A stretch of DNA of 64,000 nucleotides from Escherichia phage FP43. The translations under genes were made by a program, and so were the position numbers. Of this stretch, positions 13,844 through 44,793 are shown piece after piece. Below the pieces are notes generated by a model. That model was not told where the DNA came from. It did not search any database and saw nothing but the letters and a program-made list of their open reading frames with translations. The DNA lies in sequence record MN648445; one strand, given 5' to 3'. Each line of letters starts with the position of its first letter. The stretch's first letter is position 1.

Positions 13844-14130
13844 TTCTTTATGCTAAGGTAAAATCCGTTGAGAATGGATATGAAAGCGATCAACGTGCAG
13901 CTAAAGCACTAGTTGATGACTACGGTATTCTGACCCACTTTGAAGTTGAAAAGGTTTATATTGACCGTTCATCTTCACAGGTTAAATTACTCTGGGAAGA
14001 CCGTAAATTTAATAGCGTGAACTTTGATTTCTTTATTGAAACAGAAAAAGGCCCTCTTGAATATGATATTTTCAAGAATCCTTTGAAATTACGTTGCATT
14101 GAATATAATTACATTAATATGGTACGGTGA
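13840..14130 (+). CDS. Hypothetical protein
   Basis: 96-aa ORF with start overlapping upstream stop. Confidence 0.4.
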   Translation: MILYAKVKSVENGYESDQRAAKALVDDYGILTHFEVEKVYIDRSSSQVKLLWEDRKFNSVNFDFFIETEKGPLEYDIFKNPLKLRCIEYNYINMVR

Positions 14131-14729: not shown

Positions 14730-14804
14730 GGCCCTGTAGCTCAATGGGAGAGCTGTCAGCTCATAACTGATAGGTAGCTGGATCGAAACCAGCCAGGGTC
14801 ACCA
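14730..14804 (+). tRNA. tRNA with CAU anticodon (elongator Met, or Ile2 if C34 is modified)
   Basis: Hand-folded cloverleaf: acceptor GGCCCTG/CAGGGTC, D-arm GCTC/GAGC, anticodon stem GTCAG/CTGAT with loop CTCATAA, T-arm GCTGG/CCAGC, encoded CCA. Confidence 0.7.
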
Positions 14805-14807
14805 ATT

Positions 14808-14884
<77 letters not shown>

Positions 14885-24823: not shown

Positions 24824-25237
24824 ATGACTCGTATCAATTTAACACTTGTTTCTGAACTGTCCGACCAACATCTTATGGCTGAGTATCGTGAATTACCACG
24901 CGTATTTGGTGCAGTCCGTAAACATGTTCAAAACGGTAAACGTGTAAAGGATTTTAAAATCTCTCCAACATTTATCTTAGGCACAGGTCACGTAACATTC
25001 TTTTACGACAAACTCGAATTTTTACGTTTACGTCAAATCGAGCTAATCGTTGAATGTTTGAAACGTGGTTTCAAAATCAAGGACACGACAGTCCAGGATA
25101 TTTCCGACATCCCTGCCGAATTTCGTAATAATTATGTCCCGTCCGAAGCGTCCATTGCGATAAGTCAAGCACGCTTAGATGAAAAAATTGCTCAACGTCC
25201 GACTTGGTACAAATACTATGGTAAATCAATTTACTAA
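24824..25237 (+). CDS. denV: Endonuclease V (pyrimidine-dimer DNA glycosylase)
   Basis: [35 protein letters not shown]...; 137 aa; recognised T4 denV pattern. Confidence 0.9.
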
Positions 25238-25244
25238 GGAAAAA

Positions 25245-25574
25245 ATGAAAACATATCAAGAGTTTATCACTGAAGTTACATTATCTGCGGAACAGAAAGC
25301 TGCTATCGAAGAAAGTAAAAATCCCAAAGTAACATATAAAGTAAATAGTAAAGGCGTTTTTGATGGCTTGGTTCAAGACCCTGAATTGAAAAAAGCTCTT
25401 TCTAAAACTAATGCGTACTTTGCTCCTAAATTTAACACAGCAGGTGTACTTATTGGATTGGATGTATTCAACTCTAAAGGTGTTCTATCTAATGCCTTTG
25501 GCTATGCCGCTAACAAAATTACCAAAGCCGCATGGGAATCCAATACCAAACAAGCTCAAAAGCCTAGAGTATAA
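25245..25574 (+). CDS. Internal-protein-like capsid-targeted protein
   Basis: N-terminus MKTYQEFITE, exact match to the recalled T4 leader MKTYQEFIAE with one substitution. Confidence 0.65.
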   Translation: MKTYQEFITEVTLSAEQKAAIEESKNPKVTYKVNSKGVFDGLVQDPELKKALSKTNAYFAPKFNTAGVLIGLDVFNSKGVLSNAFGYAANKITKAAWESNTKQAQKPRV

Positions 25575-25746
25575 TTCTTGTCTAATAAAGGGAAACGCAA
25601 CCTCTCCTTATGAACGTCGAGTCCTCTGAGTGATGTACCTTTTCCAACCTGTAATAAGGTCGAGCGCAATGCGGTAATGGGTTTACATAGCGAGTCGAAG
25701 GACCTAACATGTGCCACGGAATGGCCCAAACCTTAAGAGAAATAAT

Positions 25747-26286
25747 ATGAGAACATTTTTAACTGGACCTTATCTATCCCTGATGAATGCTTTTACACAC
25801 CATTCTGATGCTAGAGTAGAAGAAATTTGTAAGAACGGTTATATCCCACCATTTGAAGACGTACTCAAGCAGTACTGTACACTTCGTTTAGACGGCGGCA
25901 GACAATCAGGTAAATCAATTGCTGTGACTAACTTTGCTGCTAATTGGCTGTATGATGGTGGAACAGTTATTGTTCTTTCTAATACTTCAGCTTATGCTAA
26001 AATTTCTGCTGGCAACATTGAAAAAGAATTTTCTCGTTATTCTAGCGACAATATTCGATTCCGTTTATTTACTGATTCTGTCCGTAGTTTTATTGGCAAT
26101 GAAGGTTCTAAATTCCGTGGATTAACGCTTTCTCGTATTCTGTATATAATTGACGAGCCTATTAAAGCTCCTGATATGGATAAGATTTACAATGTCCATA
26201 TTAAAACAGTACAGTACTGCTGCAAAAGCAAATATTGCATCGGCGGTAATGCTCGTCCTCAATTTTTTGTGATTGGAATGCAATGA
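25747..26286 (+). CDS. Hypothetical protein
   Basis: 179-aa ORF; weak P-loop-like GGRQSGKS. Confidence 0.45.
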   Translation: MRTFLTGPYLSLMNAFTHHSDARVEEICKNGYIPPFEDVLKQYCTLRLDGGRQSGKSIAVTNFAANWLYDGGTVIVLSNTSAYAKISAGNIEKEFSRYSSDNIRFRLFTDSVRSFIGNEGSKFRGLTLSRILYIIDEPIKAPDMDKIYNVHIKTVQYCCKSKYCIGGNARPQFFVIGMQ

Positions 26287-26591
26287 TGACCACTATTGAA
26301 GTTTTTGAATATTGTTATAACAGCCCAGTATGCAATAAAAGGGCTCTTGTAGAAAATTACGAGATTTACCATTTTAAACCTAAACGATACCGTTTGACTA
26401 AAGGTCCGTTCGCAGGGCAGCAGGTTCTTTGTACTGCTCCTAATGCACGGTTGATGACTAGTATTCCGCATTTCAAAATGGAATTTATTGATGGGCCATT
26501 TAAGGGATTAATCACTCAAAGTTTAATGGCGTTTAATTCTGACCCATTTTTGATTAAAGAAAAAACTTGGATAAATTTATTTTCTAATTGA
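26283..26591 (+). CDS. Hypothetical protein
   Basis: 102-aa ORF with ATGA overlap. Confidence 0.4.
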   Translation: MMTTIEVFEYCYNSPVCNKRALVENYEIYHFKPKRYRLTKGPFAGQQVLCTAPNARLMTSIPHFKMEFIDGPFKGLITQSLMAFNSDPFLIKEKTWINLFSN

Positions 26592-26597
26592 GGTTAT

Positions 26598-26960
26598 ATG
26601 AAAGCATATCAAATTCTTGAAGGTGCACATAAAGGCACTATTTATTTTGAAGACGGTACTCAAGCCCGGATTATCGTCTCTAAGACTTTTAAAGAAGACG
26701 CTATTGTAGACCCGGAAATTTTCTACGGTTTGAATGCCCGTGAAATTGAAATTGAACATCAACCTAAAGTTAAAATTGAAGGTGGTCAACACCTGAACGT
26801 TAATGTTCTGCGTCGTGAAACTCTGGAAGATGCAGTTAAGCATCCAGAAAAATATCCGCAGTTGACCATTCGTGTATCCGGTTATGCAGTTCGCTTTAAC
26901 TCTCTGACTCCAGAACAGCAGCGCGACGTTATCGCTCGTACCTTTACTGAGAGTCTATAA
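26598..26960 (+). CDS. Autonomous glycyl-radical cofactor (GrcA/YfiD-like; T4 Y06I-like)
   Basis: 120 aa; C-terminus [28 protein letters not shown] carries the RVSGY glycyl-radical motif. Confidence 0.75.
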
Positions 26961-27184
26961 TGGCTAAATTGATTATAGAAGGGTCTAAAGATGTGCTAAA
27001 TGCTTTCGCAGAATGGTTTAGTAATTCAGGCGAGCAATCATTCACTGAAGCATTTAGAATGGGTGATATTACTGGAAAATATCCGACAACCGATATCACT
27101 GTACGTGGATATGGTATTAATGAGCCTATCCAATTGGTCGAATATGACCTTGCCACCGATGAGGAAATTCCTTATGTCGATTGA
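26960..27184 (+). CDS. Small hypothetical protein
   Basis: 74-aa ORF with ATGA overlap. Confidence 0.4.
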   Translation: MAKLIIEGSKDVLNAFAEWFSNSGEQSFTEAFRMGDITGKYPTTDITVRGYGINEPIQLVEYDLATDEEIPYVD

Positions 27185-27419
27185 AGACATCAAAGGCTAC
27201 AAGCCGCATACCGATGATAAAATCGGTAAAGTGAACGCTATTAAAGATGCAGAAGTTCGATTAGGGCTTATTTTCGATGCCTTGGCGGAAGAAGCGTTGT
27301 CTGCGAATACTCCTGAAGCTTTGACAGCTTTGTCCCAATTGAACTGTGCTAAAGAACGCCTAAAGGAAGCTAGTATGTGGGCTTGTCGTGCGGTATTTCA
27401 ACCAGAGGAAAAATACTAA
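27174..27419 (+). CDS. Small hypothetical protein
   Basis: 81-aa ORF from internal ATG 27174. Confidence 0.4.
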
Positions 27420-27718
27420 TGGCTCAAATCCTATCAGGCTTTGGAACTCATTATGAAGCATCTCGACGCATAACTGAAAACAATCCTTTTGGCCTTGTTC
27501 CGAAGCACAAGAAAATTCAAAGCCTTGATGACTTTGAGAACCGCCTATGGGCCCTCTTTAATGAGTACAAGGCATATCTGAAAGAAGACGCTGACGATTG
27601 TCTTGAAGAAGATGAGATTGCGTATTACGAACAACGCCTTGAACAGCTCAAGAACTTCCACCAGGTTCGTGACGAAGTATCTAAAGCAGTTAAAAAGTTA
27701 ATTCCTTTCAAAGAGTAG
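27419..27718 (+). CDS. Hypothetical protein
   Basis: 99-aa ORF; denV-regB interval where T4 carries the vs.x genes. Confidence 0.45.
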
Positions 27719-27766
27719 TTTACTTCTCCTCTAGTTGTGTTACTATAGACCTGTCAACTAGAGGAG
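27718..27766 (+). promoter_or_regulatory. Early promoter cassette with perfect 12-bp inverted repeat; 3' arm contains the regB Shine-Dalgarno
   Basis: GTTTAC 27718..27723, TACTAT 27741..27746, arms CTCCTCTAGTTG (27726..27737) and CAACTAGAGGAG (27755..27766). Confidence 0.65.
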
Positions 27767-27774
27767 AAATCAAA

Positions 27775-28233
27775 ATGACTATCAATTCGGAAGTTTTTAT
27801 CCGCCGTAATAAACTCCGTCGAATCTTTGAAACGGAGTTCCGCAAAATAAATGCCGGTATAAAAGATGCTGCAAAGTCTCTTGGACTACCAGGCTTTCAT
27901 ATCAAGTATTCTCAACATCTCTTAGATCGTGCCATCCAGAGAGAAATAGATGAGAATTACGTTTTTGAATTATTTCATAAAGTAAAAAATCATGTTAAAG
28001 AAGTTGCAGAATTTTTATCAATGCCGGCACGTCCAGATGTTGATGAAGATTTTGTCGAAGGTGTCGAATATCGCCCAGGCCGTTTAGAAATAACTGACGG
28101 AAATCTTTGGTTAGGACTTACAGTCTGTCGCGAAAATCCAGCATTCAAAATGAAGACTCTTCAATGCAGAATGGCTATTATTAACAGTAAACGACTACCA
28201 GGAAAAGCTTCTAAAGCAGTGATTAAAATCTAG
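27775..28233 (+). CDS. regB: Endoribonuclease RegB
   Basis: 152 aa, MTINSEVFIRRNKLRR...; recognised T4 RegB pattern. Confidence 0.85.
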   Translation: MTINSEVFIRRNKLRRIFETEFRKINAGIKDAAKSLGLPGFHIKYSQHLLDRAIQREIDENYVFELFHKVKNHVKEVAEFLSMPARPDVDEDFVEGVEYRPGRLEITDGNLWLGLTVCRENPAFKMKTLQCRMAIINSKRLPGKASKAVIKI

Positions 28234-28241
28234 AGGTAAAC

Positions 28242-28784
28242 ATGAGAAAAGCACTACTCGCTGGTCTATTTGCTCTTTCGTTATCAGCACATAGCTCCGA
28301 GCATACTTTTAGTAATGTCCAACTCGATAACTTGAATTATGCTTATCAGTTTGGGGAACAGTTTTCTAAGGACGGAAAATTTAAAACGCATGAAAATATG
28401 CATAAGAAAGGACTTGGATACATAATGGCCGCAATACTATGGCAAGAATCTTCCGCCGGTATTAATCTTAAAGATAAGAAAGGTCACCATGCGTATGGAA
28501 TGTTCCAAAACTATCTACCAACAATGAGGGCAAGAATTAACCAGCTTGGTTATAATATGACTGATGCCCAAATTAAGAAAATGCTATCTAAGCGGTCTAA
28601 TTCAGCAAGATGGGCTTATATCGAATTTTCTTATTGGTTAAATATACATAACGGGGATATAAGAAAAGCTATATCCTCATATAATGCGGGATGGAAGACA
28701 AGTGCTGGAAGTAAATATGCTTCTGAAGTCCTAGAAAAGGCTAATTACCTTAAATCAAATAAACTACTGGAAATAAAAGAATGA
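28242..28784 (+). CDS. Secreted protein (vs.1 position), possible transglycosylase-like
   Basis: 180 aa with signal peptide MRKALLAGLFALSLSAHS; weak E-S motif LWQESSAG. Confidence 0.45.
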   Translation: MRKALLAGLFALSLSAHSSEHTFSNVQLDNLNYAYQFGEQFSKDGKFKTHENMHKKGLGYIMAAILWQESSAGINLKDKKGHHAYGMFQNYLPTMRARINQLGYNMTDAQIKKMLSKRSNSARWAYIEFSYWLNIHNGDIRKAISSYNAGWKTSAGSKYASEVLEKANYLKSNKLLEIKE

Positions 28785-42038: not shown

Positions 42039-42512
42039 ATGTTATTATCTGGCAAATTATACAAAGAAGAAAAACAAAAATTTTATGATGCACAGAACGG
42101 TAAGTGTCCTATTTGCCACCGTGAATTAGACCCTGATGTTCAAGGTAACCATCTTGACCACGACCATGAATTAAACGGGCCAAAAGCTGGTAAGGTTCGT
42201 GGTTTACTATGTAACCTGTGCAATGCAGCAGAAGGTCAAATGAAGCATAAGTTCAACCGTTCTGGTCTTAAAGGTCAAAACGTTGATTACCTCGAATGGC
42301 TTGAAGCTCTTCTTGCTTATTTGAAACAAGACTATTCTGATAATAATGTCCATCCTAATTTTGTTCCAGACAAAACTAAAGAGTTCTCAAGACTAGGTAA
42401 AGAGGAAATGATGACCGAGATGCTTCAAAGAGGATTTGAATATAATGAATCTGATACTAAAACACAATTAATAGCTTCATTCAAAAAGCAGCTTAGAAAG
42501 AGTTTAAAATGA
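42039..42512 (+). CDS. 49: Endonuclease VII (Holliday-junction resolvase)
   Basis: 157 aa MLLSGKLYKEEKQKFYDAQNGKCPICHREL...HLDHDH...; recognised T4 gp49 pattern. Confidence 0.88.
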   Translation: MLLSGKLYKEEKQKFYDAQNGKCPICHRELDPDVQGNHLDHDHELNGPKAGKVRGLLCNLCNAAEGQMKHKFNRSGLKGQNVDYLEWLEALLAYLKQDYSDNNVHPNFVPDKTKEFSRLGKEEMMTEMLQRGFEYNESDTKTQLIASFKKQLRKSLK

Positions 42513-44326
42513 AAATTGAAAAAGAAATTGAAGGATTAATTTATAAAACTAATAAAGATCTTTTGAACGAGAATGCTAATAAAGATTCTCGTGTTTTTCC
42601 AACTCAACGGGACCTTATGGCTGGTATTGTGTCTAAGCACATTGCCAAAAATATGGTCCCGTCTTTTATTATGAATGCGCATGAAAGCGGAATCATTCAT
42701 ATGCATGATATTGATTATTCTCCTGCTCTTCCATTTACTAATTGTTGTTTAGTCGATTTAAAGGGGATGCTTGAGAACGGATTTAAATTAGGCAATGCTC
42801 AAATTGAAACGCCTAAATCGATTGGTGTTGCTACTGCAATTATGGCACAAATTACTGCACAGGTTGCTTCACATCAATACGGCGGAACGACTTTTGCTAA
42901 TGTAGATAAAGTACTTTCTCCTTATGTTAAACGTACATACGCTAAACATGTTGAAGATGCAGAAAAATGGCAAATCGCTGATGCGTTGAATTATGCTCAA
43001 TCTAAAACAGAAAAAGACGTATACGATGCATTCCAAGCTTATGAATATGAAGTAAATACTCTTTTTAGTTCAAACGGGCAAACGCCTTTTGTAACAATTA
43101 CATTTGGTACGGGAACCGATTGGACCGAACGAATGATTCAGAAGGCAATTCTTAAAAACCGCATTAAAGGTCTTGGTCGTGATGGAATAACTCCTATTTT
43201 TCCTAAACTTGTTATGTTTGTTGAAGAAGGTGTTAATCTTTATAAAGATGATCCAAACTATGATATTAAACAACTTGCGTTAGAATGTGCAAGCAAAAGA
43301 ATGTATCCTGACATTATTTCGGTTAAGAATAATAAAGCTATTACCGGTTCTTCAGTTCCGGTTTCTCCAATGGGTTGCCGTAGTTTCTTGAGCGTATGGA
43401 AAGATTCGACTGGTAATGAAATTCTTGATGGACGTAATAATCTTGGTGTTGTAACACTGAATCTTCCTCGCATCGCGTTAGATTCTTATATTGGAACACA
43501 GTTCAATGAACAGAAATTTGTTGAGCTATTTAATGAACGAATGGATCTGTGCTTTGAAGCCTTGATGTGCAGAATTAGTTCTTTAAAGGGCGTTAAAGCG
43601 ACTGTTGCTCCTATTCTTTACCAAGAAGGTGCATTCGGGGTTCGTCTTAAACCTGACGACGATATAATTGAGATATTTAAAAACGGTAGAAGTTCAGTGT
43701 CTTTAGGATACATTGGTATTCATGAATTGAATATTCTTGTTGGTCGTGATATTGGACAAGAAATTTTAACTAAAATGAATGCTCATCTTAAACAGTGGAC
43801 CGAAAGAACTGGATTTGCTTTTAGCTTATATTCTACTCCTGCTGAAAACCTTTGTTATCGCTTCTGTAAACTTGATACAGAAAAATATGGAAGTGTAAAA
43901 GATGTCACTGATAAAGGCTGGTACACTAACAGTTTCCATGTTTCAGTAGAAGAAAATATTACTCCGTTTGAAAAAATTTCTCGTGAAGCGCCATATCATT
44001 TCATTGCGACAGGTGGTCACATTTCTTATGTTGAACTTCCTGATATGAAAAATAACTTAAAAGGACTTGAGGCTGTCTGGGATTATGCTGCACAACATTT
44101 AGATTATTTTGGTGTTAATATGCCAGTGGATAAATGTTTTACATGCGGAAGTACTCATGAAATGACTCCTACTGAAAACGGATTTGTTTGTTCAGTTTGT
44201 GGAGAAACTGATCCTAAAAAGATGAACACCATAAGAAGAACATGCGGTTATTTGGGAAATCCGAACGAGCGCGGATTTAATCTAGGCAAAAATAAAGAAA
44301 TCATGCATAGGGTTAAACACCAATGA
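42509..44326 (+). CDS. nrdD: Anaerobic ribonucleoside-triphosphate reductase NrdD
   Basis: 605 aa, contiguous with no intron; C-terminal glycyl-radical motif RRTCGY. Confidence 0.88.
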   Translation: MKIEKEIEGLIYKTNKDLLNENANKDSRVFPTQRDLMAGIVSKHIAKNMVPSFIMNAHESGIIHMHDIDYSPALPFTNCCLVDLKGMLENGFKLGNAQIETPKSIGVATAIMAQITAQVASHQYGGTTFANVDKVLSPYVKRTYAKHVEDAEKWQIADALNYAQSKTEKDVYDAFQAYEYEVNTLFSSNGQTPFVTITFGTGTDWTERMIQKAILKNRIKGLGRDGITPIFPKLVMFVEEGVNLYKDDPNYDIKQLALECASKRMYPDIISVKNNKAITGSSVPVSPMGCRSFLSVWKDSTGNEILDGRNNLGVVTLNLPRIALDSYIGTQFNEQKFVELFNERMDLCFEALMCRISSLKGVKATVAPILYQEGAFGVRLKPDDDIIEIFKNGRSSVSLGYIGIHELNILVGRDIGQEILTKMNAHLKQWTERTGFAFSLYSTPAENLCYRFCKLDTEKYGSVKDVTDKGWYTNSFHVSVEENITPFEKISREAPYHFIATGGHISYVELPDMKNNLKGLEAVWDYAAQHLDYFGVNMPVDKCFTCGSTHEMTPTENGFVCSVCGETDPKKMNTIRRTCGYLGNPNERGFNLGKNKEIMHRVKHQ

Positions 44327-44793
44327 ATTATGATAGATTTTATCCTTGCGATTTTGTGAATGGCCCTGGTTGTAGGGTCGTTCTTTTCGTTACAGGGTGT
44401 TTGCATAAATGCGAAGGGTGTTATAATAAATCAACATGGAATGCTAGAAATGGTGTTCCATTCACTGGTGAAACACTAGAACAATTAATTGAATGTTTGA
44501 ATAATGATTATATAGAAGGATTGACTATAACTGGAGGAGACCCTCTCTATCCTGATAACCGAGATGTTATTCATTGCATTGTCCAAACAGTAAAAAATCT
44601 TTATCCCAGTAAAAGCATTTGGTTGTGGACAGGATACAAGTTTGAAGATATTAAACAACTAGAAATGCTTAAATATGTTGATGTTATTATTGATGGGAAG
44701 TATGAGAAAAATCTTCCGACCAAAAAGCTGTGGCGAGGATCAGATAATCAGCGACTTTGGTCAAATACCGATGGGGTGTGGAAACATGATTAA
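44323..44793 (+). CDS. nrdG: Anaerobic RNR activating radical-SAM protein NrdG
   Basis: 156 aa with CLHKCEGC (Cx3Cx2C) motif. Confidence 0.85.
   Translation: MNYDRFYPCDFVNGPGCRVVLFVTGCLHKCEGCYNKSTWNARNGVPFTGETLEQLIECLNNDYIEGLTITGGDPLYPDNRDVIHCIVQTVKNLYPSKSIWLWTGYKFEDIKQLEMLKYVDVIIDGKYEKNLPTKKLWRGSDNQRLWSNTDGVWKHD

Follow-up and report, generated by a model that had tools for sequence, protein, structure and literature searches.

The predicted glycyl-radical 'spare part' gene vs.6 of Escherichia phage FP43 has a radical-domain core that was probably copied from host grcA

INTRODUCTION

Within a 64,000-nucleotide stretch of the genome of Escherichia phage FP43 (sequence record MN648445; hereafter the window), positions 26598 to 26960 encode a small stand-alone glycyl-radical protein, the orthologue of Vs.6 (Y06I) of phage T4. 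The locus raises two linked questions, namely what such a protein does for a phage, and where its radical domain came from. Biochemical validation as a 'spare part' has been reported for only two proteins, E. coli YfiD (GrcA) and T4 Y06I (PMC8683613, PMC13450708, citing Wagner et al. 2001). The activating enzyme of pyruvate formate-lyase (PFL) installs a glycyl radical on either protein, and the activated protein then forms a complex with oxygen-cleaved PFL, the activity of which is restored (PMC8683613, PMC13450708). The C-terminal part of YfiD duplicates the PFL radical domain; residues 1–60 lack order and contribute to radical installation and the formation of the complex, not to catalysis (PMC8683613).

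We conclude with high confidence that the FP43 gene is the Mosigvirus orthologue of vs.6 and encodes a predicted spare part for host PFL; the gene is a chimera, its core probably overwritten from host grcA. The gene call itself is already known, having been annotated in RefSeq and characterised in 2001, and the exact 120-residue protein is public (UniRef 'Autonomous glycyl radical cofactor, n=9, Tax=Mosigvirus'). Only the mosaic make-up of the gene is out of the ordinary: a core of grcA-like DNA is joined to a phage-specific N-terminal half.

RESULTS AND DISCUSSION

Assignment of the protein to the Vs.6/Y06I group

The listing of open reading frames and the raw sequence agree on a single ATG-initiated frame of 120 amino acids on the plus strand, at precisely 26598..26960; both the frame and the C-terminus quoted for it in an initial annotation, made from the letters alone, are therefore correct. 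Gly_radical (PF01228; 67.3 bits against a cut-off of 22.2, E=2e-18) is the sole Pfam domain of the protein, with residues 60–101 covering the last 42 positions of the model. In a phmmer search of the PDB the top match was E. coli GrcA (6owr, E=2e-42), followed by E. coli PflB (1h16, E=3e-26). Residues 61–120 of Vs.6 are 100% identical to residues 68–127 of GrcA, and residues 57–120 align with PflB 696–759 at 84% amino acid identity over 64 residues. The HMMER alignments place Gly95, within the RVSGY motif, opposite GrcA Gly102 and PflB Gly734. Amongst NCBIfam models, the best match by a wide margin is TIGR04365 (spare_glycyl; E=5.8e-47, aligned over residues 18–120), and PHROG 1209 is matched across its whole profile (E=9e-63). 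These results uphold the initial reading of the C-terminus as a GrcA/YfiD-like glycyl-radical module, and alignment to E. coli GrcA, which had been suggested as a check, finds the conserved glycine in place.

GrcA and Vs.6 are both stand-alone glycyl-radical domain proteins with the same radical glycine, Vs.6 being seven residues shorter. The N-terminal region of the phage protein matches YfiD 1–60 in length, and in the alignment some 35% of its residues are common to both proteins, including Q5, I6, D19, A23, R24, I26, V27, K29, F31, E33 and D34; the motif A-R-x-I-V-x-K-x-F-x-E-D is kept. The two genes differ in their setting, since grcA is host-regulated, whereas vs.6 is phage-encoded and transcribed in a T4-type early gene block. 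Similarity to T4 Vs.6 extends over the full length (93% identity, 120/120 residues); the T4 protein likewise has 120 amino acids, and seven of the eight amino acid differences fall in the N-terminal half, with one in the core (R73 here, H73 in T4). The existence of a T4 homologue, Y06I, had also been noted in the initial annotation, and its gene proves to be syntenic with that of FP43. Judged by these matches, the gene belongs to the phage Vs.6/Y06I group (PHROG 1209), with a predicted mechanism of the GrcA type.

As in the definition of the GrcA/YfiD family (TIGR04365, IPR011140), the protein is small, contains a glycyl-radical domain and is devoid of a catalytic barrel. It shares the RVSGY radical loop of the PflB C-terminal domain (residues 696–759), the part which it is thought to replace, but has neither the barrel of PflB nor Cys418/Cys419, and so cannot itself be a pyruvate formate-lyase. 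We therefore ruled out that identity: the gene does not encode a full-length enzyme of ~760 amino acids, and the pyruvate formate-lyase model TIGR01255 is matched only at its last 66 of 744 positions (89.6 bits against a cut-off of 994). Some GenBank labels of 'pyruvate formate-lyase' for vs.6 are thus misannotations; 'acetyltransferase-related' is another label found there on GrcA-like phage genes.

A core nearly identical in DNA to E. coli grcA

Codon-by-codon comparison with E. coli grcA shows near-identity in DNA, synonymous sites included, over the last third of the alignment, and no such agreement over the first half. In a maximum chi-square scan the breakpoint falls at codon 60/61, with differences at 89/178 positions upstream vs 8/182 downstream, a value reached in 0 of 2000 permutations. 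The same scan of T4 vs.6 against E. coli grcA gives 94/178 vs 3/182 differences (again 0/2000 permutations), whereas a control comparison of the Salmonella and E. coli grcA genes has no breakpoint (692/2000 permutations).

Over codons 61–117, FP43 and E. coli grcA are identical at 166 of 171 nucleotides (97.1%) and at all 57 amino acids. The corresponding value is 99.4% for T4, which has the same mosaic, and 100% for two phages from IMG/VR (L005 and L007). For comparison, E. coli grcA is 98.8% identical to that of another Escherichia species over the same 171 nucleotides (2 differences); over its last 186 nucleotides it is 92.5% identical to that of Citrobacter and 84% to that of Salmonella, and in the core E. 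coli and Salmonella are 83% identical, with a synonymous divergence (dS) of 1.13. Codons 1–60, by contrast, are only about 45–50% identical in nucleotides to E. coli grcA. In this half the identity of FP43 is 88.9% to T4, 74.4% to a Klebsiella phage, 57.8% to RB16 and 40–46% to host genes.

The DNA identity of the core to pflB is only 78%, which points to grcA, not pflB, as its donor. The last three codons of the gene are phage-specific, so that the host-like tract lies wholly inside the gene, in keeping with a patch left by conversion. When positions 14000–38999 of the window were compared by megablast with 5426 complete E. coli genomes, the core tract was the only segment with a match; each genome contained exactly one, always at grcA. 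Base composition alone does not flag the core (GC 0.46, vs 0.33–0.44 nearby), and the core of E. coli grcA itself has a GC content of only 0.42 at third codon positions.

Near-identity of this kind could in principle reflect convergent codon choice, or selection at the nucleotide level, on a single ancient acquisition. The amino acid sequence of the core is indeed under very strong purifying selection, and grcA is a highly expressed, codon-biased gene, which raises the number of codons expected to be identical by chance to 34.4 of 57 under E. coli pflB usage (24.0 under phage usage). The observed number in FP43 is nonetheless 52 of 57 (P=4e-10 and P=2e-18, respectively), and in T4 it is 56 of 56 (P=1e-17 under E. 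coli high-expression usage). The phage also shares all 17 core codons that are non-preferred in E. coli. RB16, which also infects E. coli, encodes the identical amino acid core at only 83.6% nucleotide identity; Klebsiella phages have Klebsiella-specific synonymous variants, and the switch at codon 60/61 is abrupt. We consequently regard convergence as highly improbable.

Host specificity and apparent recurrence of the proposed exchange

An orthologous 5′ half, with 74% nucleotide identity to that of FP43, is found in Klebsiella phage KPV15 and in about 128 related records from Klebsiella/Raoultella phages. A 32-nucleotide probe from the KPV15 core retrieved bacterial contigs of 56–58% GC from gut metagenomes, the GrcA protein of which is exactly GRCA_KLEP7 of Klebsiella pneumoniae. 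Between the grcA gene of these contigs and the core of L173, a metagenomic relative of KPV15 retrieved by the same scan, identity is 97.7%, rising to 100% over codons 61–112, and for the KPV15 group as a whole identity of the core to K. pneumoniae grcA is 97–98%; the probe biased which bacterial contigs were recovered, and it is the remaining 139 nucleotides that constitute independent evidence. The cores of FP43 and the Klebsiella phage are 85.4% identical, mirroring the 87.7% between the grcA genes of E. coli and Klebsiella. The vs.6 copy of KPV15 itself (L030, NC_055715 69717–70078) has a frameshift around codon 45–48, either a sequencing error or the mark of a recent pseudogene; its metagenomic relatives L170 and L173 are intact.

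In a neighbour-joining tree of the cores, the E. coli phages cluster with Escherichia at 92% bootstrap support, as do the Klebsiella phages with their host's gene at 99%; none of the 500 replicates recovered the phages as monophyletic. For the 5′ half, the phages all cluster together, at 38–46% identity to host genes. Synonymous divergence suggests that the exchange has recurred within the E. coli phages: between Mosigvirus-type and Tequatrovirus-type genes dS is 0.35–0.52 in the 5′ halves, vs 0–0.2 in the cores, and between L005 and L007, the cores of which both equal the E. coli allele (dS 0), it reaches 0.47 in the 5′ half. Non-synonymous divergence (dN) in the core is about 0.

Where phages depart from the E. 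coli allele, nearly every substitution is confined to a single phage. The five in the FP43 core, none of which occurs in T4, are all synonymous GC-to-AT changes, as expected of drift toward the AT-rich phage composition. The first 180 nucleotides of the gene are the same in FP43 and its closest relative, phage SF, and the five differences between the two genes all lie in the core; the chance of this is ~0.02 if differences are randomly placed, (171/363)^5.

These observations make it likely that gene conversion from host to phage acts time and again on the radical-domain half of vs.6. The grcA allele of the current host genus (that of E. coli in Tequatrovirus/Mosigvirus and that of K. pneumoniae in the KPV15 group) would have replaced a tract of ~155–175 nucleotides in two or more T4-type lineages, all of them strictly lytic. 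The tract starts exactly at the boundary between the disordered and ordered domains, and would have been re-converted repeatedly within the E. coli phages. Assembly contamination is an unlikely source of the K. pneumoniae and E. coli matches, given 786 independent records with the vs.6 gene and about 128 from Klebsiella/Raoultella phages.

In the mechanism that we envisage, the old phage gene would still be similar enough to host grcA in its radical domain for fragments of the latter to recombine with it in the infected cell, presumably through the T4 recombination system, which is very active. Each conversion would restore perfect homology and hence make the next one easier. Codons 1–60 would then represent old phage-lineage sequence, and codons 61–117 sequence overwritten recently, more than once and across phage genera. 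The 5′ border of the tract coincides with the start of the ordered domain (about residue 60–68 of YfiD); it could lie there because homology ends at this point, because the phage N-terminal half is under selection, or for both reasons. No report of host–phage DNA identity at vs.6/grcA was found in the searchable literature; an earlier mention outside it is possible.

Several apparent viral copies in IMG/VR were set aside. L032, a candidate for a Yersinia-tracking phage copy (91%), was discarded as a full-length, Yersinia-like bacterial grcA on a short contig, and loci L073–L082 were rejected as the 3′ ends of bacterial pflB genes filed as viral. L073–L075 and L078–L082 carry the 3′ end of E. 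coli pflB, with core identity of up to 100%; these and L032 are probably prophage-flanking or misclassified bacterial DNA. A record labelled 'Vagococcus sp. WN89Y', by label a Firmicute (L113, NZ_JBQPOM010000029.1), contains an enterobacterial grcA with 91% protein identity to that of E. coli, in the same 90% protein cluster as GrcA of K. pneumoniae, and is probably mislabelled or contaminated.

Predicted function

The identity of residues 61–120 to GrcA 68–127 makes the YfiD/Y06I mechanism the best-supported reading by a wide margin, and by analogy with the T4 protein we strongly infer that Vs.6 of FP43 would restore oxygen-cleaved PflB. Upon infection, the phage would make the 14-kDa Vs.6 protein, on which the host radical-SAM activase PflA would install a radical at Gly95. 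Activated Vs.6 would then dock on PflB that has been cut at Gly734 by oxygen, taking the place of the lost C-terminal radical domain, such that the repaired enzyme could again convert pyruvate to acetyl-CoA and formate. In microaerobic hosts, or those exposed to fluctuating oxygen, this would uphold the fermentative supply of ATP and acetyl-CoA, and also that of formate, which may act as the reductant of a class III ribonucleotide reductase such as the phage NrdD. T4-type phages shut off host gene expression after infection. A phage-encoded copy makes sense in this setting because host grcA would no longer be inducible.

The genes nrdD and nrdG, the latter encoding the radical-SAM activase of NrdD, are both present in the window, as their Pfam matches confirm (Table 1), although not alongside vs.6 as first described. 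Formate is the reductant of characterised class III ribonucleotide reductases and has been proposed as a cofactor of T4 NrdD (PMC4493059). It is through PFL-made formate that we infer a link between vs.6 and nrdD; the phage support of anaerobic metabolism put forward in the initial annotation is plausible on this basis, and the gene arrangement gives no proof of it.

The presence of nrdD also suggests a different target. NrdD is likewise a glycyl-radical enzyme that is cleaved by oxygen; a role of vs.6 in nucleotide metabolism has been suggested from the shared Pfam domain (PMC1524935), and spare parts for other glycyl-radical enzymes have been speculated upon (PMC8683613). That Vs.6 is a spare part for phage NrdD, or for another host glycyl-radical enzyme such as TdcE, rather than for PflB is nevertheless very unlikely. 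BLASTP of Vs.6 against the NrdD of the window revealed no similarity (best E=6.2), in contrast to the 100% identity of its core to GrcA and 84% to the PflB C-terminus. Moreover, the core has repeatedly been replaced by host grcA sequence, and is therefore interchangeable with a PFL-specific part. TdcE is a possible additional target of Vs.6.

Alternatively, Vs.6 might be a decoy which titrates PflA activity, or forms unproductive complexes with PflB, whether intact or cleaved, and thereby redirects host fermentation or shuts it down. The half of the protein that governs activation and complex formation in YfiD is strongly diverged (~35% amino acid identity), and this could alter the regulation which normally prevents YfiD activation while PFL is intact. 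However, T4 Y06I restores PFL activity as YfiD does (PMC8683613, PMC13450708), and the radical domain is kept host-identical with dN of about 0, as expected of a working replacement part; we give the decoy proposal hardly any credence.

Least probable of all is that the reading frame is a decaying host fragment, passively carried and functionless for the phage. The T4 gene is among those not identified as essential in the laboratory (PMC1524935), and one record, that of KPV15, has a frameshift. Against this, the metagenomic relatives of KPV15 are without it, and the gene is intact in FP43 and in hundreds of other phages and is kept in all T4-like genomes compared (PMC1524935). It is also the best conserved gene of its neighbourhood relative to T4 (93% identity, vs 63% for vs.7, 70% for vs.4 and 59% for vs.3), with the near-absence of amino acid change in its core described above.

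Several points weigh against the reading of vs.6 as a PFL spare part with a host-derived core. Its function is carried over from the T4 orthologue (93% identical; R73H is the core difference), and the activation kinetics of the FP43 protein could differ, its diverged N-terminal half being the part concerned with radical installation. The TIGR04365 score (159.1 bits) is under the 170-bit equivalog cut-off of NCBI, an operational threshold tuned to bacterial GrcA; the shortfall is due to the diverged N-terminal half, and is the reason for filing the protein in the phage Vs.6 group as GrcA-type in function. The genes nrdD and nrdG are 15.5 kb downstream with many genes between, and thus share the window, not an operon, with vs.6. 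No demonstration of a physiological benefit of vs.6 to the phage was found in the literature consulted. With respect to the conversion, searches of cultured phages with the Salmonella, Yersinia and Klebsiella metagenome-assembled-genome grcA genes as queries found no Salmonella- or Yersinia-type core (best 81–87%), and host tracking is accordingly documented for Escherichia and Klebsiella only. Phage-to-phage spread of a converted allele could also explain part of the pattern.

Gene neighbourhood and local signals

The nearest phage records, at 98–99% nucleotide identity, are Escherichia phages 55, LH01, SF and ST0, of which SF is a Mosigvirus; FP43 is thus a Mosigvirus, one of the RB69-like T4 relatives. 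Comparison of T4 proteins with the window by blastp and tblastn, set against the T4 map, gives the one-strand order denV, an internal-protein-like gene, vs.8, vs.7, vs.6, vs.5, vs.4, vs.3, regB, vs.1, vs, tk.4. This order is equal to that of T4, except for the internal-protein-like gene between denV and vs.8, which T4 does not have. In T4, vs.6 (NC_000866 63557–63919; RefSeq name 'autonomous glycyl radical cofactor GrcA') is likewise located between vs.7 and vs.5, upstream of regB, and nucleotide identity to FP43 is 89–97% along the gene. The features of the locus are collected in Table 1.

Table 1. Features of the vs.6 locus and of the anaerobic ribonucleotide reductase genes; positions are those of the window
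Feature	Position	Strand	Remarks
vs.8 homologue, upstream	25711..26286	+	blastp with T4 vs.8, 89.6% identity, E=9e-126; PHROG 1488
vs.7 homologue, immediately upstream	26283..26591	+	blastp with T4 vs.7, 63% identity, E=8e-48; PHROG 2049
Shine-Dalgarno sequence GAGG	26590–26593	+	4 nucleotides 5′ of the vs.6 ATG; overlaps the vs.7 TGA stop; read from sequence
vs.6 orthologue (GrcA/YfiD-type, stand-alone glycyl-radical protein)	26598..26960	+	120 amino acids plus stop; ATG start
Codons 1–60, phage-lineage N-terminal half	26598..26777	+	Counterpart of the disordered YfiD region 1–60
Codons 61–117, host-derived glycyl-radical core (putative gene-conversion tract from E. coli grcA)	26778..26948	+	171 nucleotides
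RVSGY motif	26871..26885	+	Gly95 codon at 26880–26882, predicted radical site; aligned to PflB Gly734 and GrcA Gly102
Final three codons and stop	26949..26960	+	Phage-specific synonymous GAG AGT CTA vs E. coli GAA AGC CTG; mark the 3′ end of the host-identical tract
vs.5-family open reading frame, immediately downstream	26960..27184	+	74 amino acids; PHROG 1986, E=1e-39, whole length
nrdD, anaerobic class III ribonucleotide reductase	42509..44326	+	Pfam NRDD E=2.6e-171, Gly_radical E=1.4e-25
nrdG, radical-SAM activase of NrdD	44323..44793	+	Pfam Fer4_12 E=3e-48, Radical_SAM E=2e-7

The overlap of the vs.6 Shine-Dalgarno sequence with the vs.7 stop, and that of the vs.6 TAA stop with the ATG of the vs.5-family frame (TAATG at 26958–26962), place vs.6 within a tightly packed block of genes on the same strand. 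The former overlap may couple translation of vs.6 to that of vs.7. A scan of positions 25200–28300 for promoters and terminators gave 9 promoter-like sites vs 8.9 expected, and so provides no evidence on transcription signals. Neither Rfam nor tRNA scans gave a match at the vs.6 locus or close to it; the only tRNA genes, and the only Rfam matches, in the whole window are a tRNA-Met(CAT) and an adjacent tRNA-Arg(TCT) at 14730–14884 (+).

Amongst the neighbouring genes, the vs.8 homologue has weak matches to the terminase large subunit family phrog_2 (E=9e-5, residues 57–149), a hint of a P-loop NTPase fold. Matches to the T4 vs.5 protein are split over two frames, residues 1–17 in the 26960–27184 frame and residues 18–56 (41% identity) in the overlapping frame of the open reading frame at 27000–27419 (+), which runs on into the vs.4 homologue; as read from these matches, a frameshift appears to have occurred at vs.5 in either the T4 or the Mosigvirus lineage. 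The internal-protein-like gene, absent from T4, is a 131-residue open reading frame at 25179–25574 (+) between denV and vs.8. Only a 15-residue stretch of it (MKTYQEFI...-type, an internal-protein leader) matches T4 IPII, and an 'internal virion protein' is annotated near this position in RefSeq records of relatives.

Other phage GrcA-like genes

Small proteins (120–137 amino acids) with the same C-terminal core motif are also encoded by T5 (T5.056) and other Tequintavirus members, by jumbo phages (345–357 kb), by Aeromonas phages and by ~150-kb human-associated phages, such that GrcA-like genes are widespread in virulent phages of Gammaproteobacteria. These proteins are only 52–67% identical to Vs.6 and have unrelated N-terminal halves. 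Their cores have 72–86% DNA identity to any host gene in the panel, too little for a recent conversion to be visible. We found no biochemical test of T5.056-type proteins in the literature. T5.056 (L196, NC_005859 27656–28024), annotated as a 'putative acetyltransferase-related protein', lies inside the T5 tRNA cluster, and about 30 T5-like IMG/VR genomes have a gene of this type, with products 52–54% identical to Vs.6.

In a further set of IMG/VR contigs of ~85–154 kb, several of them human-associated (L022–L027, L033, L042 and L044), the GrcA-like cores are nearest in DNA to Pasteurellaceae grcA. One of these, L025, is 86% identical to a metagenome-assembled genome of Haemophilus parainfluenzae in the core only, not in the 5′ half. 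The Pasteurellaceae-like cores may represent a third, older case of a mosaic with a host-like core.

Significance

The gene call itself changes nothing, as both vs.6/Y06I and the exact protein were already public, though the locus serves as a reminder that some GenBank records mislabel vs.6 as 'pyruvate formate-lyase' or 'acetyltransferase-related'. The mosaic, on the other hand, is a clean case, with strong statistical support, in which a lytic T4-type phage appears to have copied part of a host gene repeatedly, with domain-precise borders and host-genus specificity in the copied tract, and is of modest but real value for the study of phage evolution. It raises the question of whether the phage-specific N-terminal half, which controls radical installation, is kept different on purpose. 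If the exchange is true and previously unreported, vs.6/grcA would provide a naturally occurring and measurable readout of exchange between lytic phage DNA and the host chromosome that the phage is degrading.

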